A stretch of 55,006 nt of DNA, filler included, from Sluysia triapertura (Eukaryota): assembly GCA_046118255.1 (NCBI GenBank). It is 4 parts of 4 records of this genome, joined end to end, with 100 filler letters (N's around TTAATTAATTAA, not from the genome) between each part and the next. Parts side by side here need not be neighbours in the genome. Positions count along the whole stretch, not along the records: positions 40,155 to 55,006 come from JBJNIA010247094.1; 3 more parts are not named here. One strand, 5' to 3'. Position 1 is the first letter of the stretch, and each line of letters starts with the position of its first letter. Position numbers and translations under genes: made by a program. This document shows, piece after piece, positions 6,460 to 55,006 of this stretch. Below the pieces are notes generated by a model. The model was not told where the DNA came from, searched no databases, and saw only the letters and a list, made by a program, of their open reading frames with translations.

Positions 6460-7560
6460 TGTGGTGGCCAACCCATTACGTTAAAAATTTGATATCAACA
6501 AGATATAACAAAATTCCTTTTCAGAACATTTCATAATTGTTAATGCTGGCAAACATTCCATACATAAAATTTCCTAACATTAAAATTATAATTAACATCG
6601 AAATTCATCAATGATATACTTTAAAAAATCATTTCAAAACACTTTAAATCTACAATTTTACAACACCAAAATCACATCTACATTCAAAACCATTAACCCT
6701 CATTAAATTTTATTCAAAACATTTTAAATTCACAAGTTTTCAACATCCAAACTTTGCCTCCATTCAAAACCATCAATGCTCATTTAAAAATTCATTTAAA
6801 ATATTCAAATTCACATTTTCAACATCTAAATCATATTCCACTCAAACCATTAATTTACATTTTAAATTCAATTCAAAACATTTTCAATTCATATTTTTAT
6901 TTCATTTTTGAATGGTTCTTAAAAGATTTATGTACAGATGGAGAAAAATAAGATCTTTTTTGTATAACTTTATTGTTATTATTATTATTATAATTAATAT
7001 TAACATTTTATTGCATTATTAATTATTATTTTCATCATTATTTTAACTATTAATAAGCGATTTATTCATCTCTCGACAGTTAAATTGAATTTAATTAGCC
7101 ACGTCATGTTGGTTGTTCATCGATAACAGCTAGTTGCCAGGATCGAGTGTTTTGTATGTGCTGATTCTGATCTGATTGGACATCCAATAAATACCTCTTC
7201 TTTTATGATCATTGTTATTGTAAGTAGGTGTCCAATCAATCGTCCAACTGGCAGATGCTACAAGCACAGCAAGAATTTATAAAGTTAAATGTGCTACTAG
7301 ATATCAAACAGATTTCAACACCCACTACGACAGAGTACAATCTCATTTAACAAATCTCGGAATCAACTTCAATTTACGGAAGTTACATAGAGAAGTTGTT
7401 GGATCTTGTGGTAACCACAACTGTGTTCCACTCGCCTCCGAAATATACAAAGAATTAAAAGTAATTCTAAATTTTTTATTAAACTTTATTCATTTGAACT
7501 ATTTTTATATCTCATTTATTTTAGAAGAGCGAAAGAAACGATCACGTGGCTTAATCATAA
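6460..7560 (+). mobile_element. Cassette copy A: motif, C/A-rich tract, hairpins, short frame, terminal intron
   Basis: TGTGGTGGCCAACCC 6460-6474; G-poor tract to ~6900; stem TGCCAG/CTGGCA (7135-7253) encloses TGATTGGACATC/GGTGTCCAATCA; open frame VQSIVQLADATSTARIYKVKC...EIYKELK; GT-AG intron 7461-7524. Confidence 0.55.
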
Positions 7561-9247
7561 AAGTCTAGAACATTATGCTGATAAATTTCAAACTTTTAAT
7601 GTGAAAACTAATAAATTAAATTGTTGTATTAGTCCTGATTTACTCGTATTATTTTCTAATTTAAAATTAATTGTTATAATTTTTAATAAACACAATTTTA
7701 GTATTCATTATCAATATTTATTAACTTGTCTCAATAAATTTAAATTAAATTTTCTAAAGAAATTTTCAATTAAATGTAGTAATTCAAGAAATTGTAATTT
7801 ACTCAATAATAAAAAACACAATAATACACCACATAAAGAATGTTATACACAGTAATACACATTTATAATTAAAATCAGAGGGTCTTTACTTATTTTGTGA
7901 AATAAATATAAACTTACCGCGATACATTACCGAAAACAGCAATAAACAAAAACAATATTGTAAAATTGTTTCTTTATATGCTAGTCTTTTTTGAAAAATA
8001 ATTTCTTTTTTGGAAAAATAATACTTCAAAAAGACTTTTTAAATAATTTTAAAGATTGTGATAGCATTTTTTTATTGATTTACAGGGTTGCGATAGCAAT
8101 CTGACATTATATAAGGAGTATTCAGAAAATGTGTTATAATTTGTATTAAAATTTGTAATTATTATTTAACTAGTGAATTATCAAGTTTATTACAATTTTG
8201 AACTGTATTTGATATTATTATTATTATTAATCATGATTTTGAATTATTGAACCTAACTTCTATAGTTATTATAACTAAATTATTTAAAATTTAGACATAA
8301 TCAAAACAGAAGTTTTAAACCCTTCTCGGTCCGATGATTTTATTGGAGTGCTGGTGTCCAGATGTATCTGAATAATTGGAAAACAAACACATTTGTAATA
8401 AATTCCAAATGATTCCTTTGGTAAAATCATTATCTTGTTAACTACATGTTTTCACAATAAATTATAGTATTAATTAGTTAACTTTCTCAGTAGGGCAACT
8501 CAAATAAAGCAATAAGAAATGTTTTTTACCAATTAATTTAATTTTATTATAATTAAAATATGACGTAAACTCAGTTGTAAAACAATTAACATCAACCAAT
8601 TATTTTATTATAAACTTTTATAGTATCCATAGTAAAATACACAAATTAAATTTAACAGTATATTGTTATGTAAGTATTTACTTAGATACATAAAATTAAA
8701 ACCAATTTTATGATATTTTTAGAGAATTTAATTTAAATTTTCGTCAAGACAGATTATTTACTCAAGAATCATTTCAATAAGTAATTAATTTATTAAATTA
8801 CTTTTGTTTCACAATATATTATTCAATAATTCATATAACCAGAAATTACAGTTTGAAGTAATTATTGCATCATTATTACAAGTAATACTAATTATAAATA
8901 TATTTCGAAAAACAGTTAAATTAACGTACCAATTATTACTTACGTTTATAATAAAAATAATACGAACATTCATAAAAATAATAAATTTATTACAATAATT
9001 TTCATTTTTCTGAAAACTAATTTATTCTGTGATTTCTAATTACCATGATTATTTATCTCGAATACTCATAAATCGAATAATATGTTTGTTATTAATTAAA
9101 ATCTTTGCAAAAATAATCAATATTGGTAAAATGTATGTTAATTAAGTTATTGCTTTTGAACCACATGACTTTTATCCGCACAGAACAAACAAGTTAAGTG
9201 ATTCAAAACTGCTATATTATAAATGGTTTCTTTTTCAATTTCGTTCA

Positions 9248-9949: not shown

Positions 9950-10630
9950 AATTATGATTGAAATTTAAAATGATTTAAAATTTAAAAACAATTAAATCGC
10001 ATTTAAAAAAATCATTTAAAACATTTAAGTATCATTTTATAACATTAGAATCACAATTACATCTTTAAATTTTACCTAAAATGTCTAACATGAATTTAAT
10101 ACATCATAAGTTCACAATCTCATCATTTAGCTTTTTAGTCTTTCAAAGATAATAAAGACCTTTAAATAATGTCTTATTTAAACAGAAAGTTCATGTAATT
10201 TTCAAAAAGTTTATGCAATTTAGAATAATAGTAATAATAATATTATTTTTGTTATTGTTACTATCATCATTTTAATTTTTCATTATTTTTAATAATACTT
10301 TTATTAATTTACTAAATTTGCAACTACCACTATCAACAGTGACACTATTAATTCATACTTACAGTTTATTGTCACTATTGATAGTGGTTGTGTTTTCAAC
10401 ATACGTAAAATCTTACTATTACTCATCAGTCGACGGGCATTTTAAATCTTTTGATGTTGCTTTACTAACTGTCGATTGATGACGGTTCTTTGTTAGTGTT
10501 TCTGAGTATTTTGATGATTGCCCAATTAAAATTATGAATATCACTATCTTTTTGTGTTTTGATTGGGCAACCATTCACATTATGAAAAAGATTTCTCATC
10601 ATAATTTCTTGTTGTCATTGTTAGTTTAAA
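9950..10630 (+). repeat. Cassette copy D leader: 5'-truncated C/A-rich tract plus three long hairpins
   Basis: Tract resembles 6615-6740 and the reverse complement of 22380-22510. Hairpins at 10326-10388, 10423-10482 and 10518-10570. Confidence 0.65.
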
Positions 10631-10651
10631 AAACATAATATTAAAACTTAC

Positions 10652-11582
10652 TTTAGAGATTTTTATCTTAAAAATAAAAACAGCAATGGCAATTAACAAT
10701 AAAGAAGACATGCAGCGTAGATTAAAAGCTCATATAGAATTAATAAATTTCTCTTCAAACGTGGAAACACACATTACAATAACTCCAAGAATTAATGATA
10801 AAGAAAATTTTGAAATAACTACTCTACGATTTGATGTTGTAAATGATAGCATCAGAGAACAAGTTGAATTTATAATTGATTGAGAAAATAGATGCCGAAA
10901 GATGTGACTTAAGTATTAATTCTTTATTTTTAGATGAAGATGTATTTGTTTATGAATAACTTGGTTACAGTAAAGATTTAGAAAATAATATTATCTGTTT
11001 TATTGGAATCAGTGCTAATCGAAGTCAAGAACATTATTTAAGAATTTTACGATATTTTAGATTTTCTGGAAGAATCCAATCCATGCGTTGAAGAAATTTT
11101 ATCTGATATCAAACGAAATCCCGATAGTCTAAAAATTATTATCGGTGAATATATTTTGGCAGAATTGAATAAAATTATTAAAGGTAAACACGCATGTGAT
11201 ATATTAAAGCGAATGTTTAAAGTAAATTTGTTTTCTTATATCGATTTAGTAAAAAATAATTTTTAAACTAAGAAAAAACGATTTTGTGAGTTTTATGAAA
11301 ACTTACAGAAAATTGATGCTAAAAGTGCGACGTTTGTAAATTAATTATTGATAATGAAAAGGAAGTAGAAATTATTCGCAAGCGTTTTAAGTTAAACAAT
11401 AATGACTTATTTATTATGCGTTATTGATTTGATAAATGTGATACGAAGGTGACATTGAAAAATTAACAAGATGATTTCATAATATGCGATATTAAAAAAG
11501 AATTCAACATAATCGATTGGAAATATGTCAATTCGAATCGTTGAAATTACTAGGAAGACCAGAAACAATTGATGAATGGTCT
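10652..11582 (+). pseudogene. TRNT1: Intronless decayed copy of the CCA-adding tRNA nucleotidyltransferase
   Basis: Across frameshifts: ETHITITPRINDKENFEITTLRFDV...VEFIID*; DAERCDLSINSLFLD; [12 protein letters not shown]...[19 protein letters not shown]; IGEYILAELNKIIKGKH; ETIDEWS. These match animal class II CCA-enzyme motifs as I recall them ([49 protein letters not shown]). RRD and EDxxR motifs are mutated. Confidence 0.9.
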
Positions 11583-28035: not shown

Positions 28036-28135
28036 NNNNNNNNNNNNNNNNNNNNNNNNNNNNNNNNNNNNNNNNNNNNTTAATTAATTAANNNNNNNNN
28101 NNNNNNNNNNNNNNNNNNNNNNNNNNNNNNNNNNN
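28036..28135. other. Artificial scaffold linker
   Basis: N44-TTAATTAATTAA-N44. Confidence 0.97.
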
Positions 28136-30371: not shown

Positions 30372-31750
30372 TCAGGGACCTTGTAGGACATGGTCGCGGT
30401 ATGCGTTATTCGAGGACTCCACAGCTAGTCGTGCACACTGGTGCGAGGGTCTTGATTTCGGTCTTGTGGAAGCCAAGTGCCTTGAAAAACTTGTCATTCT
30501 CGGAATCCCATGACACCAAGGCTCCAACGACACCAAGAGGCACCTTGCACTTCAGTTGTTCATGCAGTTTACCCTGACGATCAGCATACTTCGCAATAGT
30601 GATAGTTCGGATTATTTCGAAGGTTTTTTTCAGGACCATGGGAGTCATGATATCAAACAAGAACAGTTGGGATGAGGAAGTACCCATGGCCTGTATGTCA
30701 GGTCGCCGAGTGTCACTGATAATTGGTGTAGGTGAATCCTTATTCCGGTTATTTAGTTTTTGACTTCGAGATAAGTTCGGTGTATTTGATGTTCTTGTTT
30801 AGTAAATCATGAATTCTGTACCGTTTATAGTCACTAAATTGAACGCCAAGATATAGAGTTTCGTTTTCGCTGGTGACACATGAATCGGAGTATTTTCGAT
30901 GAGTATGGAATATCTCGAGTCCCGGGATGTTATAGTTGAAGAAGCATTTCGTAGGCAGGAATATGAGGTTGGCTGATTTCGCATTTTGGACAACTCCGTT
31001 AACAATTTGTTGTAGTCCATCGAAGGTAGTGCCGATGAGGGCTATATCGTCAGCACATGCTACGTATGGAAGAAATTTCTGGTCATCAGTTATTTTGATG
31101 TAGTCATCATCCGTGAACTGGAGGACAGAATAGTGTCATGGACAATGGACATCCTTGTTTCACTCCATACATGATCGGTACGGCTTTAGTTATAATACCA
31201 TTGAATTTGTAGGTGATACTGCTGCCTTTATATAGGTCCTTCAGGATGTTCAGGGTTTACTGTTGGAGTCCCATACTTGAGAGTGTATGCCATATTAGAT
31301 TGCATTCGCCAAGTCGAGAAAGACAATGTGTAATTCGATTTTGCGCGATTTATCGACTCCACTATTTCTTTAAGTGAGTGGAGTAGGAAGTTGTGCTCGG
31401 TGCATCCATCTGATTGGAGAAGAGCAGCTTGGTGTGTACTAATGAGGTTGCCACTTTTGATCCATGCCAGTAAGCGGTCATTCAAGATCTTGGCAAAGAC
31501 TTTATAATTGCAGTCCACTATAGGTATATGTCTCTGTGAAGCGACGTCTTGCGCCAAGTCATATTTATTGGGTTTGATTATCAGTAGAGTGTTGTAGTTC
31601 TTCCAAGCAGTCAGGAATTTTTGGTTGATCAAGATTCTGTTAAAAGTTGACCAGTGGGATCGGAATTTCTTAAATTCTCAAATGTTATGACTTGGTTGTG
31701 GCCTGATGCTGAGTGGTGAGGATCTCAATCTCCAGGATGGTATCAGTACT
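30372..31750 (-). mobile_element. Decayed, internally deleted RLE-type non-LTR retrotransposon (NeSL/Utopia-like)
   Basis: RT motifs QAALLQSDGCTEHNFLL, FLDLANA, YGVKQGCPLS, YVACADDIAL. Endonuclease motifs RRPDI...LFDIMTP...AKYAD, VVGALVSWDSENDKFFKALG, SSNNAYRDH. Frameshifts present; zinc knuckle not seen. Confidence 0.85.
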
Positions 31751-35576: not shown

Positions 35577-36900
35577 TGTAGTGACCAACCTTAATAACCA
35601 CTAAAATTTTAATAAAAACTAATATCCTTTTCTTCTCTTTTCATTGTACTTAAACAGACACACATCTATCTATTACATACCTTTTAAAACTAATCTATAT
35701 CCACAATTTTACAACATCCAAATTATATTAACCATTTCACCAGAAACATTACTCGACAATCACAACAATCCAACAACAAACGCATTTGAAATAATATATT
35801 CAATACTTTCGAACCCTTTATTTTACACTACACTTTAATAATTAATACCTAATATTTAATAATATTTATTCATTAGTTTATTTGCTTAACCCAAATCACA
35901 ATCACAAACTTACAATACATGAACCATAATCACATCTAATACCATTTCACAACACCAATAAATCTACTCGAAACATATAAAATACCTACTTCATATCTTC
36001 GAATCAATCACAACATTTAAAACTCACTATGCATCTAAGCATAATCATCAACAACACAGTACAACAAAAACATCAAATAAATGAATCACACAAAACATTA
36101 TACAATAACATCTTAAATATACCAAGATTTATATTGTAATTGTCCTTTTAGATTCATTAAATTACAATCTTCTCAATAAGCCTTTCATCCACGATATTTC
36201 AATACATAAAATTTGTTTTCAAATATGAACTTCAATCACTATCGAAGAACCTATTCTAACATTCTTTATTTTATTTCAAGACTCAAATCAATTATTATAT
36301 CTTCATAGGTTAATTATACTTACCAATTCACTCGAAACAATTATTGCTCAGATGCTTATTCCAAAGTACATTTTTTATTCATTTTAATGTCTTACAGACC
36401 TTCAAGAAATTAAAGAAAATCGTATACAGTTTTGAAGAATTCAATTTTATATAATGAAATAACAACGATAACTCGAGCATAGTACACCCTGTTATCGTTG
36501 CTGTTTTATATTTTATATTTTATTTTTTATGTGTAAGAAGTATATAAAAGAAAGAAAAGATCGTATTATATTATTTTCAAAGAATTTTATGCATTATCTT
36601 TGATTTTCTTTTTATTAATAATAATAACAATATTATTGTTATTATTATTATTATCAATTATTAAGTTAATTATTGTACAGATTTTATAATCATTAAAAAC
36701 TTGTTACTACCACCACCAGTGTTGACACTACTCATTACAATTTTCATTAAAGTGTCAACACTGATAATGGTCAATCATCAGCGTTTTTGGTTTATACATC
36801 TAAATTTGTATATTCTGCCTGTCATCCAATCAGGTAGAATTTCACTAATTATATATCACAATCCCTGATTGGATGAGGAAAGGCAAGCTAAATAAAGAAT
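35577..36900 (+). mobile_element. Cassette copy C leader
   Basis: TGTAGTGACCAACCT 35577-35591; ~800-bp G-poor tract; perfect stems CAACGATAAC/GTTATCGTTG (36463-36500), CAGTGTTGACACT/AGTGTCAACACTG (36717-36763), TCATCCAATCAGG/CCTGATTGGATGA (36822-36876) inside TGCCT/AGGCA. Confidence 0.65.
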
Positions 36901-36922: not shown

Positions 36923-38032
36923 ATGATTAAAAACAAGACTTTCCTTAAATTTCATACTATACATCTCATACTTAAATCTCATACTATACATCGTTCCTAC
37001 ACTCAATCAGAACTGGTCAATTATCATCGAAATTTGCAACGTAATCAAATGATTTCAAATATTGTTATACGAAGTTATGAATTATTAGATTTAATGTCTC
37101 ATATGAAACAATAGACTTTTAATGAATTTCAGAACCTACAGAATGCACGTACTTGCAATTTTGCTACTTCGGATTGCCGTTTGAAATATTTACTTAGCCT
37201 GTATGAAGATATACAGATATGTTACAATATTTTACATTTATTATCGAATTTTATACATAACAATTTAAATATTCAAGCTTATTTATTTTATTGTCAATTT
37301 AACCGAAAAGATTATTTACAAAATTTTCATTTATTGTCGTCACAAATGATTTTAGTAAGTCGACGAGTTATATCGCAATTCTCTTTAGTATTGTCACACT
37401 CAGAATTCTCGCTCCCTTTACGTCAAGTTCGTTGGCAAATACTATTTAGTATCGAAAATTTCCAAATATACATCGATGTTCATTCAGTAGAAAAGTCACA
37501 AAAATTCAATCGTGATCACTGTTCATAAGAATTATTTAGTTTTGATTTTGTTAATTATTCATTGGATCATCAAATTATTAGCATACAATTAATGTCGTTC
37601 AGTACTATGTTATATAAATTTACGTTGGAAGGATTAATTTTGTTTACTAATGATGCCAATCGTTATTTAATTAAAATAAAATATTTTAATGATTCGTTGA
37701 GTAATCGGTGGAGTCAATATATAACATTGATGGACAAATATGTCGTAAAAGAAATTAGTGATAAATTATACGATTCCGAAAGAATGTTATCATTTGCAAA
37801 ATATTCACATTATAGAGCTATCGAAATGTATAAAGATAAGGTAGTTATATCTTCGTCGCTTTCAGATAAAGAATGCAGTTATTTAATAGAGCAATTAGTT
37901 AACAATATGATCACATTAGTTTTTAATTGATGGCGAATGCTAAGAGATCATTATCTTATCCGGCAATCATTTTCTTCGGGTGAACAAATACGGTTGACAT
38001 CCACCAAAACCTTAAATATTGGAAGATACTCG
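36923..38032 (+). pseudogene. ~370-codon single frame with 3 stops; gamma-tubulin complex component (GCP4-like) C-terminal domain
   Basis: ORFs at 36923, 37181, 37562 and 37937 share one frame. VSRRVISQ...LRQVRWQILFSIENFQIYIDVHSVE...FSFDFVNYSLDHQIISIQLMSF resembles GCP4 SVRRVQ...LRNHMAFLVDNLQYYLQVDVLE...RDFESIRLAHDHFLSNLLAQSF as recalled. Intron 38033-38087 follows. Confidence 0.5.
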
Positions 38033-38479
38033 GTAAATTTTTATTATTCGTGTATAATTAATAATTATAATATCTTTTATTTTTTAGATTGTAATTATAA
38101 AGCTAGGATTCGCGAACTACAATGTGGTGCAATGACAATCATTATGTCAGCAAATTTATCATTACAAGGAAATATAAAATATATGTTTAGAATTCATTTT
38201 ATATTCAATAAAATCTTTTTCTTTATTTCTTATAAGGTTTTTATTACTCCTTCAAAAAGTTAAATTATTATTACTTCAAATCCAAGTTATGAACTATAAT
38301 GTAGAGAATAATAGGAACAATTTTACAAATATGTTTTAGGTCAATTGATAACAAACGTAACTATATTTGCCTTATATTAATAACTTCCTTCTCTGCAACA
38401 TCAAAACTCGAATATATATCGTAAGAGATTAATCTATAATAAAAACTTTATTATTAAATTTAAAATTAAACATATTATT

Positions 38480-40054: not shown

Positions 40055-40154
40055 NNNNNNNNNNNNNNNNNNNNNNNNNNNNNNNNNNNNNNNNNNNNTT
40101 AATTAATTAANNNNNNNNNNNNNNNNNNNNNNNNNNNNNNNNNNNNNNNNNNNN
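40055..40154. other. Artificial scaffold linker
   Basis: N44-TTAATTAATTAA-N44. Confidence 0.97.
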
Positions 40155-40545
40155 TTCTTGATGATTGTTCTACATCAAGAACGTAAATTATGGAATTAGA
40201 TGATGGAATTACTTGAATTGGTAAAAAAACATCAAAAAATATTCAAAGAAATAACAAAAATTTGTAAAATCTAACATATTTAATTTTTAGCGCCCCACCC
40301 TCTTTTGCGCACCTTTGTGTTAGAAGACCATATTTAAAAAATATAAGCCGCAAAATCTTACACTGTACCTAGACCGAAATATATTTACTATTCAATCATA
40401 TCTGAATGTGAATTGATTGTGGTTCTAAAATGTGTTGTAATGACGATTTACAACTTTATTTCAACTCTACTGAAATTTATGACGAACATTTTTTATTACC
40501 AAAAGCCTTTCACAGAACCATCTTAGTAATACGTTCTTATTTCAG

Positions 40546-40854
40546 AGATATTACGATTACTCAAGTTCCAGAAATAGAGGCAATTATCCTTTTACAAATA
40601 ATAACAGTTCGAACAGCATCAGTACAAACCGCAAAGGTTCTAGCTTCTTGGATTCAGGAGGGGTTGATAAGTATCGAAAGGCTCACCATGGAAGCAGTAA
40701 TGGACCTCTCAAATACAAAACTGACAACAGACGTCACAGAGCGCGTAGGGGCAACAGTCAGGGCAGGTTTAACAGTGCGAATAGTAACGACAATAATTAC
40801 AATAATTACTGTGGCAGCTATGGACGTGACAATAGATCCAGTCGTCGCAAATAG
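40546..40854 (+). CDS. Terminal exon encoding an Arg/Asn/Ser/Gly-rich low-complexity tail
   Basis: Acceptor TTCTTATTTCAG (AG 40544-40545), then 102 codons RYYDYSSSRNRGNY...RRHRARRGNSQGRF...RSSRRK*; locally higher GC. Confidence 0.55.
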   Translation, partial: RYYDYSSSRNRGNYPFTNNNSSNSISTNRKGSSFLDSGGVDKYRKAHHGSSNGPLKYKTDNRRHRARRGNSQGRFNSANSNDNNYNNYCGSYGRDNRSSRRK

Positions 40855-40896
40855 TGGCAAAATTATTATATTAACATTATTATTATTATATTATTA

Positions 40897-40955
<59 letters not shown>

Positions 40956-42465
40956 TATCGAAATCAAGTGGTGATAATTCGTAATAATGTTACAGAAATT
41001 GTTCCGTTTTCTAATTGTGATTATGGATTTGTAAATAAATTTGATGAAATTCAAACTTTGCAATCATTTGAAGTTTTGCGTCTTTTTTCGATTACTCTTC
41101 AAAGGGTTCTCATATCATCTGTATTACCGTACGTTTTAAATTTTATTTATCGATCAAATTCCGGTCTCCTTTTACTTGCTGTTTGTGTGCACATTTATTA
41201 CAAGGTGGCTCAATATCCAGGCAACTTGGATCATGGAAAGTTGTGGGGCTATTCAAGTATTCATTTAGTTGTACCGTGATTGGAATTTTTTCATTTGATA
41301 ATTGAATAGTTTCAGAAGTATTTATTATTTCTCTTAATTATCTTAATTATTATTTCTCTTACTGCGTCATTGTTGATTCAGATCAATGTTGGGCTTTAAT
41401 TGTTCACTTATAAGTAGCGTATTTCGACATAGTTCACATAACTGGTCCATTATTTATTTATTTCGGATCTATTTTGAAGATTGTATTAGTTTATCATACT
41501 TTGTTATGTCTTCTCTCGCACTGTTTCTCGAGTGTGCTAGAGTAGCACTCGAAATGATGTGATATCAGTTGGTATGGTAGTTACTGGGTGGTTGGAAATA
41601 CGAAGAGATATATAATCGATTTCAAATAAGTACACTGATTTTTCAGAGACTTCCGAAAAAAGATATTCGATGCCGAGAGGAAATAAGATATTGAGGTAGT
41701 CTTTGGAAGTCTGTAGCAATATCAAGTTATTTATTACATCGTAACATCTGACATTTCTATTTAATTATTTCCATTTAGTTATTTGTGATCACGCAATTGG
41801 TTCGAGTACTGGTGCACTAAACAACACTTTGTTGACAGTAGTAATCACAATCCATGTTTTATCTTTATTTATTCGCCGTCTTCGCACACACACTGTAACG
41901 CTACTCTATGCCTTGCTTATTTTCGTATTGCATTGGTGATGCTTGGATTTGTTGAAGCTTATTTAGTTACATTGAAACATTAATTTTGGTGAATAAATCT
42001 ATTTTTGAAATTGGTGTTGTATAAGGGACCGCTAGACGAAATGTGAGATTTGTGGTGTACGATAATTGTTGAATCTGTAGCGAAATGAATATGACACAGC
42101 AATTCAGCAAAATCGTAAAAAATAAAAGGTTTACCAATTGTTGAGAATACGAAGGAAGTACAAGATTGTATAATTAAACAGGTATTAATTCCTCTTTAGA
42201 TATTTAAGTACTCAAAAGCGTTTACAATTAGAAAAAATCGCTTCAAAATTTAAGTTGATTAAATGATAAAATGTTATTTTAAATTGAGATGTGTTTATTG
42301 AAACAAAGAAACGTATAACCTAAACTTAATTAGCCATAGTAGAGTCTTATAAGACAGAACTTGACAAGATTGCTTGATCTTGGTTTGATTAATAATGTCG
42401 TTTTCGGGTCAAATGTTAGGCTAACTTATTAATTTTATTCACGCATTCTCAACTTCAGGGTAATA

Positions 42466-42947
42466 TAGGGTTGTGCAAGTCTCTAATCATCGAAATAAGT
42501 TTTTAACATATGAGTTGATAAAAGCATTAGAAGTATGAAAGAATGTATTTAATATTAAATAAAATTTTCTCTTTCGATTCATGTTCTCATATTTCTGTAG
42601 AATTCTTAACACTAATGAATAATTTCATAGTAATAATTATAAATCAATCGAGGTTTTAAGTGTATTAGCTTGATTCACCCGATTTGAATTTGATTGGAGA
42701 ATTCTTGAGTAATTAGAGCAGAATATAATTCTATAACGATCGTCGATTTTGATCTTACAACCGAACAGTCGTTATATCACATTTTATTGAATAAATAATA
42801 ATTATTCAATTTAGGAATATAAGAACATCCTAGAAAGAGCAAGAATATGAGAAAATTTTATTTCATATTAAATGTATGTTGTCACATTGTTAACTTTTAC
42901 ATATTAAATAAAATTACTTGATGGGTATATAGACTTGCACAACCCTG
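42466..42947. mobile_element. 482-bp MITE, Tc1/mariner-type ends
   Basis: Perfect TIR AGGGTTGTGCAAGTCT / AGACTTGCACAACCCT flanked by TA on both sides; internal IR AATATTAAATAAAATTTTCTC / GAGAAAATTTTATTTCATATT. Confidence 0.85.
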
Positions 42948-44359
42948 TAATAATAAGCGTAAAATTTTATTAATATTAAAATTTTATTAATTTTAGCTAA
43001 AAAAATTAAGTACTTTCTGTACTTTTAGAATTAATGCATGCACATTAAAAAAAAGTATAAATAAGCGCCGATTGTGTAGATCTCGCCATCAAAATTTTAG
43101 TAAAAATTCGTTTAATAAAAAATTTTAAATAACGGTTAAAAGAAAACAGCTCGCCACACAATAAGCATTATCTATTTTCTTAGACAAGCATTTTACGTGA
43201 GTCGAAACAATTTCTAACTATATAAATTAACAAATATACTTTTATGTTTTAACAAGTAAACATTATAGAGGGTTTTCTCTTGTCGTTTTTAACTTAAGCA
43301 TTTTACAAACATATCTAACTACTAGTATTTTTCTTACTTTCGAAAATTACCTCCTAACTTAAAGGTTCGTTTACAGTCTACGTTTGATCTCAAATAGAGG
43401 ATGCAGCTGTAAAAAGTACGACTAAAATAAATTCTTCAAATGATGGTCTACTTAATTCAATATCTAACTTTCGAAAATCTAATTAGTATACTGAGCAACA
43501 ACAAAAATTATCGAAATTATATAGTAACAAAAGTATGATAAATGTAAAGATTACTTAATAAAATATAGAAATCAACAGAAATTTAAGTCTTACAGATGTG
43601 AGGCAGTCCTTGCAGAAAATAGATTCCAAATAAAATCCAAAAATGTATGAGTAGCTGACTGCTCAATGTGTTCCAAATCCATTATTTGTTAAATGTTGTC
43701 TTCTGTTTTCTTGTCTTATTATTTTAAAGGTGATTTTTATAGAAAGTCGATGAATCTAAAAATTGGCAATAAAAATTTTTAAAACAAACTCAAAAATAAA
43801 TTCAGTATTAAAAAACTAATAAAATTTTCAGTAATAAAACTTTTTTAAAATAATACATTAATACAAAATCATTAAATCAAATTTTTGTTATTTTCCTCAA
43901 AGCTGCTATCATCAGTCTAATCCTCACAGGAGGTTCTAATGATGTGTATAAGAAAATGTTTGGTATTAAAACTCAAGAGTGCTTGGTTAATGAGAATGTA
44001 TAAAATGCAATAATTGTAAAATTTTACAACTCAAATAATGTTCGTGCAGGACAATGAAAGATCTATGATATAATCGTTTCTTAATGTTTTCAATCTTCAT
44101 TAAGGTCTCAAAACCTTATATAGGTCTTTGGAACTCCAAAGTATACTTCAACTCTTAAAATTATTAATAGATGTCTTCATTTATAATATTCTATATATCT
44201 CTTACTCATTTGTTGATACACACTTTGGCAATTCCAACGGTATTGTTGCATCTTTAAAAATTGTTAGCTATGATAATTCAATATTATTTTAATTATATTA
44301 AAAGAATCTTAATAATTTAAGTATTTACTATCTCAAGTATAATTTTTCAGTAATTCTTT

Positions 44360-45510
44360 TACTTAATATCAATAATTATTTACCTCAAAAATAAGCTATT
44401 GGAAATCAAATCAAAAATAACACAATAATTTACAATTAAACAAAAATCAAAATATAATTTATTGTCATTGTAAATCTCTACTAAAAAATATTCACACTGA
44501 CTAAAAAAGCCAAGATTAATAATAATGTTTAGAATAATATTAAGGACACTAGAATATAACTAAAGAAAACAGGAGTGACGCAACAGACACTAAAAATATC
44601 AATATCTAGAAAGTGAGGATTCATGATACTGCCTAAATATTTTTAGATAATTTAACCAAAAGGATGAAATATTATAACAAAAATTTTGAGCAGAGATCCT
44701 TCCTAAAATTTAACAATAATATAAAAAAATTAATTTAAAAATAAATTGTGCAGGGTGTCTCACAAAACTAATTTTAAAGTCCCAAAAAAATAAATTGCAA
44801 AGGGACTCCCCACTAAATGATTTTTTAAAATCCTTTAAAAACAGATAAAATAATAATGATGATAATAATAAGAATTTTAAGACGACATTAAAATAATAAA
44901 TTAGAATAATAAAATAATAAAATATCCCTATAAAAAGTATGGACCATCTTAATTCTGAAAATCTTGTGATTGTGTGATTGTGTTGTAAAAATTTAGAAGT
45001 TTTTATTGTACATTTCTCATCATCCAATCAATCCACAGTCTCACAATTAAATACTCTCACACAAATCATCCAAACTTCTTTGAGAATCAAACCGACAATA
45101 ACAAATTTGACAATTACATGGTACGGTATGTCAAACTTCATTAGGTACCCAACATATAAATTTGATTTATTATCAACCATTATTTCCTTTTACTCTACTC
45201 AATTTATTTTCACTTAAATTACTTCTCATATTAAAATAAAAATTAACAATATAATATTGTTAATATATATAAAAATAATGAATTTGATTTCACTTTTTAG
45301 AATTTAATTAATATTCGATTTTTTACACCCAATTTTCTAATGAAAAATGTTTTAAGCTTCTTATTCTCAAACGAACCATTCTACAAACATTTCAAACTCA
45401 CTTATATATTCTCCTATTTCATAGCAATCATCTCATATTTCATTCATTACATTTGCATCACTCTAAGTATAAAAAAATATAGAAAAATTAATTAAAATTT
45501 GACTTTGGTC
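44360..45510 (+). repeat. Long repeat module, copy 1
   Basis: 44940-45510 aligns by eye with 49548-50069 (CTTTGAGAATCA, TTGATTTATTATCAACCAT, TACTCTACTCAAT, TTTCACTTTTTAGAATTTAATTAAT, ACATTTCAAACTCACTT). The upstream part shares the TRACGCAAC motif and spaced GC islets. Confidence 0.85.
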
Positions 45511-46069
45511 AATATTAAAGCTTTCCTTGCATGAACTCGGTTAAACTATACACAGTTTCAAATTTAACATAGCATTTCTCATTCGAAAGTACTTTTTTTA
45601 GTTAAGTTAAGATTTTAATTAATTAATCTATTTTTAGACTTAATTTTATTTTATGTTTAAATGTTTATTAAGGTTCCTAGACTATTTAGTAAGTTATAAG
45701 ACATTCAGGAGGCTATAGATGTTTTCACCTTCACCTGTCCGATTCATTTTTCTGCCACATTAAACTTGTCTTCACTATTTTAAACAAAGATTTTATTTTT
45801 CAAATATTTTAAAGATTTTATACATTTTATAATATTATTCGAAGATCTTCAATGCTTATCAAGGTTTCCAGAATACTTAAAGATTAATAAAGTCTCAGAT
45901 TAGCTCAAAATTAACAAGCTCAAAGGTATTCTAATGCCTTAAACCCTCCACAAGGTCTTGAATGTCAAGGTATTCTTTAGCTGTTATTATTATTATAACA
46001 GCGATGATATGGAGAGGGCTTTTTAGGTTTTGTAAATATTAAATTAAAATTATTTATACGTAATTTTTT

Positions 46070-46295
46070 AAATGCACAAAAATTATTAGAAAAATGAAAT
46101 TTTATTTTTATTTTTTTATTACATAAGTTTAAAATTTTATCTAAAAAAGAACATTTTAATTTTAATTTTCTAACCATTAACAAACTGTTAAATTTATGAA
46201 TTACTAAACTAGGCTTAAAGCCTTTATACAATAACAATTTAACAAAAACGATGAAATATGAAACATTGAAGTAAAACGTAAAAATGCACTTACAA
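46070..46295 (-). repeat. Shared 3' module downstream of the CLASP copy
   Basis: AGGCTTAAAGCCT at 46211-46223 with flanks similar to 2830-3075. Confidence 0.75.
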
Positions 46296-46588
46296 TATAA
46301 GAATATAGTAGTAATAAGCGTCCAAATTTTATTATATGAACTGTTGATGCATAAACATCAAAAAATGTTAAGCATAAAATACTAAAGTGAATAAATTTTA
46401 AAATACTAAACTTCATGAAATGTTTACCATATATTTAGTAATAAAAATTTCGAAATATGACGATGACAAATCCAAGACAAACAGCAATAAATATTAGATA
46501 AAAAGCGTTTGCTGTTTTTACCTTTTTACAAAAATACAAAATTGATTTTTTATTATAGTATTTCAATTGGTAAAAATGTAAATAATTT

Positions 46589-48344
46589 CTATTTAATTCT
46601 ATTAACATACAGTTTTAAAAGATAAACTTTTGGTCGAGGAAACACTTTTAACTGAGGCCATATTTTATATTCTATTTTCTTGTATATTTCAATTAAACAG
46701 AATATAGTCCATTTTCTGAACAACAATTCTTTGTGATTTATAAAGATATTTAAAATAGCCAAAGTTTCCACTGACATTACATTTATAATGATGGAACTAG
46801 TGGCTCCTTTGGTAGCTCGCAAAAATCGCAATGCAGTTAATTTATCTATCGACTTAGTCGATTGCGGTGTTACGTCAATGATAAACGTATTTAAAGTGTA
46901 CCAAAGTGTATTTGTGTTGACACTTTGCAAAAATAATCATGCACGATGTGTTGCTTCTACGACTTCATTGTCGATATCTGAGAAATTAATAATCAGTTCT
47001 TCTGCCACCTGATGCATGGACTCCCGAAATCGTTCTGGTTCTGTTTTGGCAATTTCTTGAATAGAATCGATTGCTAATTTTCGAATGTTACCTTCATTAT
47101 AACTGAGACATTTGAGCAGCGCGGATGTTACTTATCCGAAATGAGTATCCCAGTCGAATTGTTTAACCGAGTAAATCCAGTTAATGGTAGAAATCAGTCG
47201 GGAACTTTCAAGCGGATCATCCAAATTCTTCAAGATCTCCTTCAATTCCATATTGTAATCTGCAATAATAGATTTATCAATGTTCATTGTTGCTTTATTT
47301 CTATTTTTATTTTTCTCATTACCATGTCCATATTCAACAATATTTTTAATCGAATATGACTCAGTGAAGTTTCTTGATGATTCATGATTCGAATATTTAC
47401 TATCCGAATAACTTTTCTGTTCCGTATTCCTTTTTTACTTTTACATAAACTATCATGACTTTCTGAAATGAAATCGTTGATCCTGTATCTCCTCGGAAAC
47501 AATCTGTTTTCTGCTGAATGGGAGACATACGAGTTTTACGACGATTAGATCTACTCTCCCGTTTGCTGTTGGCATTGGTTTATTATTGATGTCATTTCGA
47601 TTATATGTATTAAATTGGGATGGGGTGGTTCAATAACTCGTGTTAGACTTTGTGTATGTAATTTCTTCCGAAGAACCTTCTGACAACGCAATAGTTTTGT
47701 TTACTAATGCCATCTATTGCACCTTAAAGATAGGGTTATTTTCAACAGTTTTCGAATTATTTTTATCAGCGACAAAATGTGCAGCCATTCTAATGACTCC
47801 TTGAATATTATAATCATTGATAATTTGATCGTCTGAGAGCAAAAGTCTTTCTAACATAATTAAATAAACAATTAAAGTCACTAAACAAGAAATATTTAAT
47901 ATACAATTTGTTGCTACGACAATCTTGGGTAATTTTACTTCACGAGTTAATATTTTCTTAGCAAATTGTTTAGAATTTACAAAATTTCTTATGCACAAAG
48001 ATTGAGCCTTAACATTGAAATTCTAAACTCTCAATATATCACTGTATCGATGAGATGGTTTACATGAGCACTCAATCTACTGATATTTTAATTAATTTTT
48101 GAAAAGAATCATTGCGTATAATATTCTCGTAATTGAATTAGTCCAGAAATACGAAGAACTGACCGAATAATTATGAAATATTGCTTCACAGCAGTACTAT
48201 TATAAAACCATAATACATGTGAGTATTTACCAACGAACGTAAGCTTTAGTAACCATGGATTCTGAAATGTGTCCAACAAAATCATTTGATTGGATAAAAT
48301 CATAAATGAATCCTGGTATTAGCACAAATAAATATATGAATAGA
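46589..48344 (-). pseudogene. CLASP: Decayed copy of the CLASP/Orbit C-terminal region
   Basis: Frame ~47434-46589 with stops at 47134 and 46939: WDTHFG*VTSALLKCLSYNEGNIRKLAIDSIQEIAKTEPERF...DNEVVEA...FRKWTIFCLIEIY...PKVYLLKLYVNRIK*. Matches recalled CLASP WDEHFK...IRALAL...QPARF...KEVVRSA...VRKACVFCL...KMKLLNLYIKR. ORF 47714-47998 weakly resembles TOG3. No introns in the C-terminal block. Confidence 0.8.
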
Positions 48345-48692
48345 CTGGGAAAAACAAAAAAATAAAAAGAGAGTTTAAAAATAAGGATAAAAGAAATAAT
48401 AATGATAACAACAACATGATTATTATATGTTTAAAAATAATGATATTGTTGATGTTAATATGAAAGTTATTATAAAAATTATTATTTGATAATCATATTA
48501 TATAACAATAATGACAATAATTATTATATATATTGTTTAATACGATTTGAACTGTAGTTCATAATAATTATGTGCAATAATGTTTGTTTTTTGAATGATT
48601 TTAGTAATTTGTTTAGTGATCTATGTATATGTGAAATGTTTTTACGTGATGAAGTGTGATGAATTTTGAGTGATTTCCCTACAAATATTATG
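48345..48692 (-). repeat. Leader module: C/A tract, ATT tract, polypyrimidine tract and CAG acceptor
   Basis: Ends TTTTTCCCAG|TCTATTC; homologous to 1-85 and 54150-54415. Confidence 0.65.
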
Positions 48693-49099
48693 AATTCTAA
48701 ATCAATCAGTTAATTATTTCTTTATGATTTTATCCAAAATAACTTGGGCAGGAAATCTCTCAAAAACCAAAAATACTTTAATCTAAATATAAAAAATCAA
48801 TAATTTACAAAATGTTGCATCTTTAAAATTAACTTGGATAGGGAGCCTCTCAGAAATGAAAATTATTATTAGTAGAATTATTAACGATTTATTAATTATT
48901 ATTTAAAAATAAAATAATAAATAAAAGTGCCCATACACGAATATAACTACAAGCTTTATTTTGTGTTATTGTTGCGTCTTTGAATTATCCGATTATAATG
49001 AGTCAGTAATAGCTTAATTTACGTAATCGGAATCCCAATATTTTCAATACTTATCAAAAAAAATTTAAATTATCTCATATTAGATTAGTAACGGTAACT

Positions 49100-50069
49100 G
49101 TTCAATCCTAACAAAACTCAAAAAATAAATACAAATTACCACAGTAATCACAATAATATAAATGATTTAACTAGAAACTATAACAATTAAAAGAAAATTA
49201 ACAATAACTTTTACAACAATATTAACCCTTGTCAAAAGAAAAACCAGAGGTAACGCAACGAAAATTAAGATTTGACAAATAATACAAAACAAAATCAAAA
49301 TCGAATATTGGGCAGAGTATCTCCTACAAATAGTTAAAAATGAAATAATATACTTAAAATATTTTAAAATAAATTTGGCAAAGTGTTTCACACAAGTTAA
49401 CTTAAAAATAGCTAAAAATCAAAATCAAATACTTTAAAAATAAATTGAGTAGGGTTTAGCCCACCAAGTTAAATTATATTAAAATTGTTCAATAAAATTA
49501 TAAATAAAATTAAATGAAATTAATAAAAATTACCGACAGCATGGAAATGGGCCGCATGAATCGCGGCTGGTGTGGTGATGTTAAAAATTTTAAGTTTTTC
49601 ATCTTATACTCTTTTCATCCAAACACTTCTCAATTTCACAATCAAACACACAAATCATCAAAACCTCTTTGAGAATCAGACCTACAATAACAACTTCGAC
49701 ACTTACGTGGTACGTTCTGTCAATCTTCATTAGGAAAAAAATTGATTTATTATCAACCATCATTTTCTTCTACTCTACTCAATCTACTTTTACTTAAATA
49801 ACTTCTCATTAAAATAACAATGAATAATATTATTAACATGTATAAAAATAATGAATTTAATTTCACTTTTTAGAATTTAATTAATTTTATAATAAAAAAT
49901 GTTTGAGGTCCTTATTCTCAAACACACTATTTTGTTAACATTTCAAACTCACTTTTCAATTCTTCTTTTTCGTAGCAATCACCTCATATTCAATTCATTA
50001 TAATTCATCATTATAAATGTGAAAAATTCAACATTTCATAATTAAGAATTAATTAAAATTTGAATTTGC
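49100..50069 (+). repeat. Long repeat module, copy 2, abutting the stop codon of the 486-aa ORF
   Basis: Homologous to 44360-45510; contains TGTGGTGATGTTAAAAATTT (49571), reminiscent of the cassette start at 6460. Confidence 0.85.
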
Positions 50070-51530
50070 TCATATGGGCGTGGAGGTGTTATTATTATTG
50101 TTTTTAGGTTTCAAAACTTTAATTTTACGTTTATTGTATAATAATTTATGATCGTGAAATATGTGCTTAAGGCACTTAAAAAGTTTTAATTGAATACTAA
50201 TGTGCTTAAGGCACTTAAAATTACAATTTCTGAAGCAAAAGCAAGTATAATACACTGAAATTATATTATTAAAACCTTTGAACACATCTACAACTATTTT
50301 ATTTTTAAATTGAATCATGAATAGTTTGTTCATAGCTAACATGTTCAGTGACAGCCGGATTGGTATATTAGCATTCCCGTGTCCAATAGTTACTGCTAAG
50401 CGCGAACCGAATTCTCCGTCCCAGACTCGATCTGTCTTGCCCATACTTCCATAGAGAGTGGCCCAGGTGACTTCACTATGTTCGGTAGAATAAGATGGTT
50501 CAGGTAGAATAGGATAAAAATATTTAAGACAACGAGTAGTTTTATTTACCTCTTTATTGAGAAATATAAAGTTAAAATTAAATGACGTAAATACAAGATA
50601 ATTAATTTCAAAGTTTTTTGAACCTGATGACAACATAGTAGTTCTCAATTTCACAAACTCTTCAATAATGAAACCACTATCTAAGGACACACGTAAAACG
50701 TCTCTAGTATATTTAAACTCATGGTCGATCAGGTCTTTATTTATATTAAAACACGTACAATTTAAAAATCCTTTAATATAAAAATTAATGTTTAAAGATA
50801 TATCTTTAAAAACTTTTAATTCATTATGGGTTAAGCCCCTATTTATAACAAAACACACGTAATTTAAAAATTGCCCGACATTAAAATCGCTACTCGATAA
50901 CGCGTCTTTAAAGCTTTTCAATTCGTGATCCATTGAGTCTTTATGGATTGAATCACACGACGCGTAATAAATCATAGAGTTTTCAAAAAATAATTCGCTC
51001 AACAACAGCAGGCATACATCATGGCACCTCGTGATCACTGGGTAGTCAGATTCATTAGTTCGACTATTCGAATGAATCTCCACATTACTGTCCTTGTATT
51101 TGTGCGGCCCGCGACGCAGCATTTCATTAAAGTCATCCTTTTTAAATGAAGGTAGTCGCTTGGACTCGTACATAGTCACTGGAAATTTCATAACGTTGTT
51201 GTTTAAGGTGAGACAATCGCGACTTTCGAATATACCTGTGTCTTCTACATATACAGAAGGAGAACATGGTGCTCTATGGATAATACTTTCATTCTTTTGC
51301 AGATAATCCAGAGCATTACACAATTGACAATCTACTGATGCTATGAAATGCCCTGAAGATGTACTGAAGGCATCTTTTGATGGTGAATCATTATTTGTTC
51401 CATACTTCGGTCTGCAACGTTTAATCTTAATATATAAATTACTAAAAGGAACATCATTTACGCTAAGGATATTGTGGCGTTTCAATAACTGGATTAATGG
51501 AATAACATCTGATATTTCATTCATTTTCAT
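50070..51530 (-). CDS. Intronless 486-aa protein of unknown function
   Basis: 1461-nt open frame in very AT-rich DNA; possible acceptor AACCTAG|GTTATTGATCAG-ATG upstream. No domain recognised. The last ~65 codons overlap the shared 3' module. Confidence 0.75.
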   Translation of the reverse strand: MKMNEISDVIPLIQLLKRHNILSVNDVPFSNLYIKIKRCRPKYGTNNDSPSKDAFSTSSGHFIASVDCQLCNALDYLQKNESIIHRAPCSPSVYVEDTGIFESRDCLTLNNNVMKFPVTMYESKRLPSFKKDDFNEMLRRGPHKYKDSNVEIHSNSRTNESDYPVITRCHDVCLLLLSELFFENSMIYYASCDSIHKDSMDHELKSFKDALSSSDFNVGQFLNYVCFVINRGLTHNELKVFKDISLNINFYIKGFLNCTCFNINKDLIDHEFKYTRDVLRVSLDSGFIIEEFVKLRTTMLSSGSKNFEINYLVFTSFNFNFIFLNKEVNKTTRCLKYFYPILPEPSYSTEHSEVTWATLYGSMGKTDRVWDGEFGSRLAVTIGHGNANIPIRLSLNMLAMNKLFMIQFKNKIVVDVFKGFNNIISVYYTCFCFRNCNFKCLKHISIQLKLFKCLKHIFHDHKLLYNKRKIKVLKPKNNNNNTSTPI

Positions 51531-52858
51531 CTGATCAATAACCTAGGTTAATTATTTCGGAATTTTTTAGACATCAAAATTAACAAAACTTCAAAAAATG
51601 GAGCGGAAAAATATTATTCAAACAAAAATGACTTTTAGCTTAATTGCATATAAAAATAAAAATAATNNNNNNNNNNNNNNNNNNNNNNNNNNNNNNNNNN
51701 NNNNNNNNNNNNNNNNNNNNNNNNNNNNNNNNNNNNNNNNNNNNNNNNNNNNNNNNNNNNNNNNNNNNNNNNNNNNNNNNNNNNNNNNNNNNNNNTGAAA
51801 CATTGACTAAATAATTGTATTACTAGATTAACTCATATTTTTGTAAACTCGCAGAGGATTTAAATTTGCTGCAACTCATTAAAAATAAAAAGCAGATCAC
51901 AAATTATTCATTTATCATTTTGTCTCTGATTTTCTGAATCCCACTAATATTTAATGATGATAGTTGATTTTGTGAAATAGATTGAACATGTGAAATGGAA
52001 GACACTATTATCTGCTTACAACGAATGTTATCTATAGCTACAGAATCATTACTTATTTAATTTACTGTGCGTACATAAATGATTCAATAAATCCGTGTTT
52101 CTTTGTAAACACATACAANNNNNNNNNNNNNNNNNNNNNNNNNNNNNNNNNNNNNNNNNNNNNNNNNNNNNNNNNNNNNNNNNNNNNNNNNNNNNNNNNN
52201 NNNNNNNNNNNNNNNNNNNNNNNNNNNNNNNNNNNNNNNNNNNNNNNNNNNNNNNNNNNNNNNNNNNNNNNNNNNNNNNNNNNNNNNNNNNNNNNNNNNN
52301 NNNNNNNNNNNNNNNNNNNNNNNNNNNNNNNNNNNNNNNNNNNNNNNNNCTCCACAAATAAAACTTGTTTATTGGATATTTTGTCCCTGTTTTGTCTAAC
52401 TGAAATGCTACTATAATAGTAAACAGAACAATTACATCATTCGAGATAATGAACCATCAACAAAGGCACAAGCCATAGTCAATAGGATCACAACAATATT
52501 TCACAGTTAATATAGAATGATGGTGTTATAAAAGATGCAATTTTTTGTGATCAACAAATTCATAGACCAATCAATTTCATCCAATAAAAATTAATCAGCT
52601 ATGACCAACCACAGAAGAAGATTCATTTACTTAAAACATAGATCCAATTAACGTTTTGACAATTAACAATTTGGCATGCTTCTCATTAATTTCATTATCA
52701 AATGTCAACGAAATATTCGTATATTACTCAGAAACGTATTCTGTTTGCTAAAGCTTATTAGAGTATTTAATGTAAAAATATAGTTATTTACATTTATCCA
52801 ATACAACAATCTGACAAGAAAATGTTCAACATTTTTTGAAACTATATATTTATTGTTC

Positions 52859-53113
52859 TTAATTATTATTAGAAAATTTTCTACTGCTACTACCACCAGC
52901 CCCACCAGCACCAGTACCAGCATTTGCATTGTACGCTCCTAGTCCGCTAAGAGCACCACCGTTCAGTTGATTAGTCTCGATATCGCGCTCAATTCCCACA
53001 TACTTCAGGACTTCCAGTGGACCGTATCGATAGTCGAAAAATAATTCCTCGCCGGCATTGATGTCGCGCTGAGCAAAAATACCGATACGATAATCTCCAT
53101 TCACCATGAGAAC
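52859..53113 (-). CDS. EZH2: E(z)/EZH H3K27 methyltransferase, last exon
   Basis: Acceptor TTTCCAG|; [44 protein letters not shown] followed by a Gly/Ala-rich tail and stop. Confidence 0.95.
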
Positions 53114-53600
53114 CTGGAAAAATAACGATTACTTAATATAATAATACAAGAGGACTTTAACTATTGCCAATGAATTTCGAAGAAACATTTGAATTTCATT
53201 GGCTTACATACATGTTGATATAATGTGACTATTTATACTGATGACGACTGCATCAATGATTGTGATGATAATGATGATGAGGATAATAACAGATATTGAT
53301 GATGAAAAATATGAGAAGCATAGTACTCAAGTTAATGATTACTATATTTTTATAAAAATTTATTTTTACTTACTAAGTATTAATATTAATAATAGTAGCA
53401 TTATTAATAATAATGATAATAATGAAATAAAAAAATAATNNNNNNNNNNNNNNNNNNNNNNNNNNNNNNNNNNNNNNNNNNNNNNNNNNNNNNNNNNNNN
53501 NNNNNNNNNNNNNNNNNNNNNNNNNNNNNNNNNNNNNNNNNNNNNNNNNNNNNNNNNNNNNNNNNNNNNNNNNNNNNNNNNNNNNNNNNNNNNAATATAC

Positions 53601-53826
53601 TCGAGCAAAACAATTCGGATTAACCGAATGATTAGCAAATCGAATTTTGTTTCCTTTTCTTGTAGCATCCACAGCAAAGTTTTGATTCAAGTTAAATAAA
53701 TAGCTGCATTTAATTCGATCGTATATTTTACCGCGCCGCTCCGCCTCATCTTGACTGATGATTTCCCCGCAGTATTCATAAATGAATTCATTTTTGTTAA
53801 TGGCACTTTTTGCGAATATTCCCCAA
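53601..53826 (-). CDS. EZH2: E(z)/EZH SET domain, penultimate exon
   Basis: TTTAG|[76 protein letters not shown]|GT; splices in phase 0 to 53113. Confidence 0.95.
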
Positions 53827-54149
53827 CTAAATTAAAATATAATTAATTAAATAAATCTTTATTAATCACATATTTATTTATTTAATTCATCGGATTTTTT
53901 CGAGAAAATTCCATCATTGCTATTTGTCTCACATTAACAAACAAATGTCAACCATCTTCACAACATCAAAAGAAACTTAAATGAGTTAATTTTAAATATT
54001 TTATTCGAAAAAAATTCGTTTTCCAGTATAGAAAAGAAGATTTTAGAAAGTTGAATCAATAACCAAACAAAAGAATTCATTTTTAATTCATAATTAACAA
54101 TTTCAAATCAGAATTTTATCACGATTATATTTAGAATTCTTTCAGTTTT

Positions 54150-54415
54150 TCAACTCTTCACAAGAGTCACAAACACAGTTCATCACAAATCAATTATTCA
54201 TACATAAATAAATTGCTAAACAAGTTACTCGATACATTCAAAACATAAACGCAGTCATAATTTATAGTTATCATAATTTCACAATTATTATTATCATGAT
54301 TATGGCTATCATAACTATTGTCGTTATTATTGTTATAATGTCTGTTTTGCTGTTCCTCTTCTGCTTTTATCTATGTTTATCTCTATTCTTGTTTTATTTC
54401 TCCTTCAGTATAGTT
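54150..54415 (+). repeat. Leader module ending in polypyrimidine-CAG
   Basis: TCACAAACACAGTTCATCAC...CTAAACAAGTTACT...CATTCAAAAC resembles the reverse complement of 48580-48690; ends TCTCCTTCAG|TATAGTT (AG 54407-54408). Confidence 0.6.
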
Positions 54416-54710
54416 GTACTTCACGAAATCAGTATATTTTTGAAGACCAGTATAAAGATCGAATAATTTTTCGTGCTCAAAGAGAAAGGAAGAAATAGTT
54501 CCTCTTGATAGATGCTTTAAAGGTTGTAAAAATTTCGCAAAAGCAAACAATTAAAAGAAAAATTGGCTAAACTTAGAAAATAATATTCAAATTATTATTA
54601 ACATAAATTAAAATTAATAATTCATCTTTAAAAAAGTCGACATAATTTTGTTTTAATAAATTTGAAGTTCTAATAACGTGATAACACAAGAATATTGTTA
54701 AAATTGAGCA

Positions 54711-54915
54711 ATGAAAATGGCATTTTACTTCTTTTGTTTACTATTTTTGATGATTTCAAATACTCGCGTATGGTCTGATTCTAATGCGGAATATGCGGAA
54801 ATTAAAACAGATGTACATGTTCCTGATGATTTAATAGTCGAGAAGTCTCTCAAACAGGGTGCTTTTAAAACAACCCACATTGAAACACAATATACACCAA
54901 AATCTAACTTTTTAC
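54711..54915 (+). CDS. Probable first exon of a secreted protein
   Basis: MKMAFYFFCLLFLMISNTRVWS (signal-peptide-like) DSNAEYAEIKTDVHVPDDL...PKSNFL, then GTAAGT at 54916. Missed by the ORF track because the frame runs off the window. Confidence 0.5.
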
Positions 54916-55006
54916 GTAAGTTTATGTTTTATACTTTCGTTTTGTTTTTCCTGTTATTTAATAAAAGAATTTTCCTAATTGGGTTAATTTATTTGTTATT
55001 CATTCG

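Follow-up and report, generated by a model that had tools for sequence, protein, structure and literature searches.

The window, by which we mean the whole 55,006-nt stretch of Sluysia triapertura DNA that was analysed (assembly GCA_046118255.1), is very AT-rich, with a GC content of 0.18-0.40 per kb and many AAT microsatellites. It contains three identical N44-TTAATTAATTAA-N44 spacers (16818-16917, 28036-28135 and 40055-40154), which appear to be artificial joins of unrelated scaffolds, so that neighbourhood across them means nothing. A decayed copy of the C-terminal part of CLASP lies, with the repeats around it, within positions 40155-55006, together with the two 3'-terminal exons of an E(z)/EZH gene that looks intact (52859-53831, minus strand). 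The best identities of E(z) were to cestodes (82%), schistosomatids (80%) and a monogenean (79%), against 78% to vertebrates, and this likeness to neodermatan flatworms suggests, by a small margin, a flatworm genome. No tRNA gene was found in the window and no Rfam family scored above threshold; a tRNA-like 3' piece at ~30320-30270 was not called by ARAGORN. The window also holds a decayed non-LTR-type reverse transcriptase (30400-31677, minus strand, weak RVT_1) with a motif that may resemble that of a restriction-like endonuclease, a tandem array of about six copies of a 36-nt unit (15078-15299), and a gene fragment (13300-13710, minus strand) in which, by eye, there seem to be very short introns of ~40 nt.

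The CLASP copy stands in a row of repeats, listed here in the order in which they are read on the minus strand. Depth is summed depth in Logan contigs, a rough guide and not a true copy number, and is ~35 for unique sequence.

48813-50072, minus strand: upstream direct repeat R2, 1260 nt, starting TGAGC and ending AAAGATGCAACA; the first ~500 nt are from a family of very high abundance
48684-48812, unstranded: AT-rich spacer of low copy number that separates R2 from the leader; bin 48743-48883 has depth 160
48345-48683, minus strand: leader repeat, starting TGTAGGG, C/A-rich and then AT-rich, ending in polypyrimidine-CAG; depth 54k-140k
47249-48303, minus strand: 5' part of the decayed ORF, a hydrophobic stretch and then a polar linker of ~165 residues; depth 37-170
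46589-47248, minus strand: C-terminal TOG4 (CLIP-interacting) domain of CLASP, intronless, with two stops inside it (47134 and 46939) and a terminal TAG
46316-46588, minus strand: 3' spacer, already repeated, with AATAAA ~36 nt past the stop; depth 195-475
46037-46315, minus strand: shared 3' module, a mid-copy repeat with AATAAA signals; depth 1.2k-1.6k
45512-45995, unstranded: repeat B, more abundant than anything else in the part of the window covered by the depth search; depth 330k-800k over 45500-45922
44244-45511, minus strand: downstream direct repeat R1, 1268 nt, starting TGACC and ending AAAGATGCAACA

The order of leader, acceptor, decayed CLASP and 3' module is as an earlier, sequence-only reading of this DNA had described it. 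The decayed frame runs from an ATG at 48303 to the terminal TAG at 46589 and holds 14 internal stops when read over 48400-46592, while the remaining two frames of the region hold 40 and 60, against ~48 expected. The minimum cost of stops and frameshifts is 14 in the cargo and 26.5 in the best of 30 block shuffles. That reading had also proposed the frame 47434-46589 for a homology search, and the PDB, hhalign and representative-sequence searches bore out a CLASP identity for TOG4 only. Residues 385-602 (47248-46595) match the TOG4 domain of human CLASP2 (PDB 8whh, E 4.7e-10), a 12-sequence CLASP profile aligns by hhalign over residues 381-602 only (98.3% probability, E 1.6e-14), and the 19 matches among 1.84 billion representatives all fall inside residues 381-603, at 22-30% identity. 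Six of 10 matched clusters that were looked up carry a descriptive name, five of them CLASP and one TOG-domain. The colinear match to TOG4 of CLASP1/2 (orbit/mast; 8whh) spans 218 residues and takes in the terminal KLYVNR/NLYIKR helix, but the copy departs from CLASP1/2 in its 22-30% identity to any relative found, in its missing N-terminal domains and in its stops. With flatworm CLASPs the copy shares only ~25-27% identity.

Judged by these comparisons of sequence, the TOG4 third is the only part of the frame that is statistically CLASP. The layout of the upstream ~380 codons fits a CLASP TOG3 remnant and linker, and the ~165-residue polar linker resembles, in composition and length, the 160-197-residue linkers of four homologues; homology of this part is statistically unsupported, with a TOG3 profile scoring -0.6, below the best of 500 shuffles. 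A TOG3 alignment that was convincing by eye failed against the shuffles and was dropped. Pfam gave no significant family for the CLASP copy (HEAT/Vac14 sub-threshold only), a word-based homolog search returned 0 of 1280 candidates, and a single-sequence AlphaFold model was uninformative (pLDDT 40.2).

All 14 stops are covered by public Logan contigs of run X1, possibly the source sample, with 0 differences, and they are therefore not errors of the present assembly; contigs of run X2 hardly cover the cargo. Depth over TOG4 is doubled (43-71), with a second locus ~89% identical over 46747-46946, and falls to single copy in the linker. A one-base indel at 48184 against the sister copies, of which about two further copy-equivalents are seen there (62.5 of 94.5), accounts for the early stop cluster of the cargo. 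Since the cargo has sister loci, it is not the sole CLASP-like locus in the genome. The second locus and the recurring stops thus contradict the case that the sequence-only reading had set against itself, of a single CLASP locus with stops from assembly errors. In a wider form, in which the stops could also be reassigned codons, that explanation would account for a frame largely kept across 600 codons, and we find it scarcely credible: the stops recur in independently assembled contigs, all three stop types occur among them, the standard code gives clean E(z) exons, and the N-terminal ~900 residues of CLASP are missing from the window, where a six-frame scan found no further CLASP match. The ciliate code was tried and does not open the frame, 3 of the 14 stops being TGA. 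The CLASP copy is a real pseudogene and a member of a small family.

Such a family might instead consist of lineage-specific, once-expressed truncated CLASP paralogues (TOG3 remnant, linker and TOG4) with a transposon-derived leader and 3' UTR, the member seen here being dead. An acceptor 41 nt before the ATG would suit expressed paralogues, as would an early stop cluster explained by an indel against sister copies, a depth that is single-copy in the linker and doubled over TOG4, which selection on domains would give, and an identity of merely ~25-27% to flatworm CLASPs. However, no intact sister sequence was seen and a linker deletion in the sisters explains the dip in depth equally well, and we hold this explanation to be very improbable.

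Upstream of the cargo, positions 48609-48691 match positions 1-83 of the window at 92%, and the TGTAGGG start of the leader at 48683 recurs at 75. The latter was considered as the 3' LTR of a gypsy pol and dropped, having no polypurine tract (PPT) before it. A diverged inverted leader copy lies at ~54160-54340 (z 3.3-8.6), and no leader copy lies 3' of the CLASP copy inside its block. Counting the polypyrimidine-CAG at 48345, the window has six such strong acceptors, and another one, at 54408, is carried by the diverged copy near 54160; both leader copies long enough to show an acceptor have one, and the acceptor therefore belongs to the leader. TGTRGKG sites number 16 in the window against 8.5 expected, and six of them precede DNA with a strong excess of C over G, marking three leader-like families. 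Two other leaders share their distal part (36541-36771 and 10175-10388, z 7-9) yet precede different sequences. Within 50 nt of the acceptor the GC content rises to a coding-like ~0.30 from 0.14-0.26 upstream, which places the end of the cargo at the leader and not beyond it.

Downstream of the cargo, the 3' module (46315-46037), which has a GTAAGT/AG donor-acceptor look, matches positions 3099-2808 (z 14-18, 75% of aligned columns), and this second copy sits about 140 nt past the stop of a Ty3/gypsy pol. In each of its two copies (2/2) the module thus comes after a stop codon and in the same orientation. When eight 3' flanks were compared pairwise (28 pairs), only those of CLASP and pol (z 17.9) and those of the RING ORF and 2178-1700 (z 10.1) were clearly related. 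A search of metagenome contigs with patterns of the leader and of the 3' module had 0 matches. No A-run of 8 or more was found over 46001-46600, where decay may have removed a poly(A) tail. The position of the module after the stop, the lack of poly(A) and a depth that drops stepwise from the flanks into the cargo favour a captured unit. As to the pol itself, a decayed Ty3/gypsy protease-RT-RNaseH-integrase is found at 3241-6200 (minus strand), apparently gag-truncated; it lacks a recognisable LTR pair, and the CLASP-type 3' module comes after it. The depth of repeat B, which the sequence-only reading had not mentioned, peaks at 800k per bin and declines steadily toward 45995; a single-contig joint from 45995 to 49358 could be a cargo-free relative and is too weak to use.

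The flanks of the CLASP copy are thus repeats on either side, with a real acceptor, as had been claimed, but the further proposal that leader and 3' module belong to one unit is less secure. Their summed depths lie ~100-fold apart (54k-140k and 1.2k-1.6k, the 3' module being the rarer), which counts against one unit; no second pair of leader and 3' module occurs in the window, where the other decayed ORFs have 3' flanks with no relation to that of CLASP. Depth on the two sides of the leader is alike (160 and 170), as expected of a later insertion of the leader, and this too counts against one unit. An ordinary CLASP pseudogene, either a non-LTR processed copy or part of a segmental duplicate, into which leader, 3' module, B and R copies inserted independently would leave just such a pile-up, with the leader being solo-LTR- or SINE-like. 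We consider this explanation, including that nature of the leader, somewhat unlikely, although it is the chief rival of the reading that we prefer. It draws further on the different abundance of each flanking repeat (from ~1k to 800k depth), on the near-duplication AATATT/TATATT around 48683-48333 (rough chance estimate ~0.2), on the absence of LTR hallmarks, and on solo LTRs beside genes, which are known in flatworms (PMC4558846). Independent insertion is opposed by the coding-like composition, which breaks off at the acceptor and is not taken up again beyond the leader, as well as by the 3' module after the stop in both copies and the missing poly(A) tail.

The whole block is bracketed by ~1.26-kb direct repeats, R2 (50072-48813) and R1 (45511-44244), which were absent from the sequence-only reading. 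Over the first ~500 nt the two are 84% identical when aligned columns alone are counted and 74% when gaps are included (z 55), and the distal parts are weakly alike (z 6.5, 53% with gaps). The 84% is not far from the ~89% seen at the sister locus, pointing to direct repeats of similar age and favouring one unit, and R2 and R1 would be the LTRs of one insertion; the R family is abundant enough for the pairing to have arisen by chance, with an R2 depth of 200k at 49589-49700 and 0.9-4.4k at 48884-49588. The TG starts are sharp in both repeats. The CA of the end motif runs on into common letters, which makes the repeat end uncertain, and a second copy of AAAGATGCAACA lies inside R2 at 48981-48970. 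No TGG primer-binding site (PBS) occurs within 10 nt of the R2 end that was tested (48967) or ~20 nt of the leader end, nor, by eye, past 48813. Before R1, no purine run exceeds 8 nt, and the one of that length lies 9 nt away, not adjacent; those before three other candidate starts are 2-4 nt. Around the R2-R1 block there is no 4-6 nt target-site duplication (TSD), with CCATA before R2 and ATACC after R1 sharing only ATA, and decay may have erased one. An open frame of 490 aa (50070-51542, minus strand), whose stop codon overlaps the first bases of R2, had no match in Pfam or phage tblastn and only kinase-like leads below 0.9 in a language-model atlas.

The introns bear on whether the cargo passed through RNA. 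The TOG4 alignment has no intron-sized gaps, also at two sites where the gene calls of another animal break relative to its spliced form (P0022-P0025 vs P0004/P0026), and where the CLASP gene of that animal probably has introns. The split E(z) at 53831-52859 shows that host genes have introns, which favours a spliced-RNA origin of the cargo. The parental CLASP gene did not turn up in the searches, so that a loss of its introns is only presumed. A DNA-level capture, in which a Helitron or Pack-type DNA transposon took up an intron-poor CLASP segment and the modules are other captured or internal pieces, would explain why the modules retain intron-like donor and acceptor sequences, which spliced RNA would lose, and such events are known (PMC6431247). 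It is nevertheless quite improbable, since no recognisable intron is seen across about 1.7 kb, the bracketing repeats are direct, and none of the 25 longest of 578 inverted pairs involves 45511-48700.

The reading that we prefer, with a probability of about 0.5, is that a CLASP mRNA was captured into a non-autonomous LTR-like transposon unit, which was copied a few times and then decayed. The source would have been a fast-evolving host CLASP gene, of which the dead, 5'-truncated copy would represent roughly the last 600 codons. The reverse transcriptase of an LTR-type element may have switched template onto the CLASP mRNA and then back, and the spliced fragment would have landed between an element leader ending in an acceptor and the element 3' region. 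The resulting non-autonomous unit would be bounded by R2 and R1 and would have multiplied a few times, the present copy decaying afterwards. It is the RNA origin, the template switching and the co-mobility of the modules that we infer here.

LTR-mediated retrocopies made by template switching have been described in animals (Tan et al. 2016, PMC5131818). The CLASP copy is like them in being a partial host CDS flanked on both sides by transposon sequence, with no poly(A) and with signs of further non-autonomous copying, but unlike them in that its flanks match no one characterised LTR element and that PBS, PPT and TSD were not found. Given the absence of these three LTR hallmarks, we do not file it as an LTR-mediated retrocopy; at best it works like one. 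The ta-TRIM/solo-LTR fusions of taeniid tapeworms likewise combine an abundant small LTR-like repeat beside a CDS with acceptor splicing as the link; their downstream genes are intact host genes with demonstrated transcripts, a PBS and TSDs of 4-5 nt (PMC4558846), whereas in the CLASP block the repeat itself contains the acceptor, and what follows is a dead, truncated gene copy. The giant gypsy elements named Burro, from planarians, are likewise flatworm LTR elements with host-like accessory domains, but they are autonomous, over 30 kb long and encode a polyprotein of ~4,900 aa (PMC6431247), while the CLASP block is 5.8 kb and has no element-encoded enzyme. Pack-MULE, Pack-TIR and Helitron capture (PMC6431247) resembles the present case in placing a host gene fragment within a non-autonomous element and differs from it in acting at the DNA level with inverted or hairpin termini, in contrast to the direct repeats and intron-free cargo of the CLASP block. 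The literature, as far as our incomplete search reached, held nothing on a transposon-borne CLASP copy or on genome-wide capture of such a kind in flatworms. The capture event is most likely of a known kind and no new system.

The sequence-only reading had further named a GCP4-like second cargo (37115-38263) and, with CLASP, a microtubule theme among the captured genes. This stretch lies beyond the spacer at 40055-40154 relative to the CLASP copy and is a single plus-strand frame interrupted by stops, predicted with low confidence to be all-helical. By eye it may resemble GCP C-termini. It had no match in Pfam, PDB or a homolog search, nor in a fold search (AlphaFold pLDDT 35.5; Foldseek, no match at E 0.001); these tests are weak, as the same homolog-search method also missed CLASP, and the GCP4 identity is unconfirmed rather than excluded. 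Other host-like cargos are a copy of the CCA-adding enzyme TRNT1 that is decayed and carries frameshifts (~10600-11500, plus strand; PF12627 E 8e-5, PDB E 5e-14), downstream of a C/A-rich leader-type repeat, and a RING ORF (21503-21105, Pfam). Of the three host-like cargos that are confirmed, one is a microtubule gene, so that microtubule genes are unsupported as an enriched class and there is no enrichment to explain. A second C/A-rich repeat family starting TGTRGTGRCCAACC occurs at 6460 (plus), 22745 (minus) and 35577 (plus), each time some way upstream of a stop-poor frame, namely the RING ORF and the stretches 37115-38263 and 7224-7855, the latter two without identity.

A more far-reaching proposal is that the non-coding mobile families form a modular expression chassis whose acceptor is routinely loaded with host coding sequences all over the genome, the animal equivalent of Pack elements; we regard this as unlikely. 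The chassis would consist, on this doubtful view, of a TG-start leader with a cis- or trans-splice acceptor and a 3' module bearing an intron and a polyA signal, and CLASP, the CCA-adding enzyme, RING and even gypsy pol would, just as doubtfully, be its cargos.

Taken by itself, the CLASP copy of the preferred reading is one dead gene fragment, and its importance is that of a pointer only. Two intron-free decayed host-gene copies (CLASP and the CCA-adding enzyme) and a RING ORF after leader-type repeats occur within 55 kb, and such clustering gives a hint that transposons often capture genes in this little-sampled and probably parasitic flatworm lineage. Such copies would mislead gene annotation and CLASP counts in the genome.
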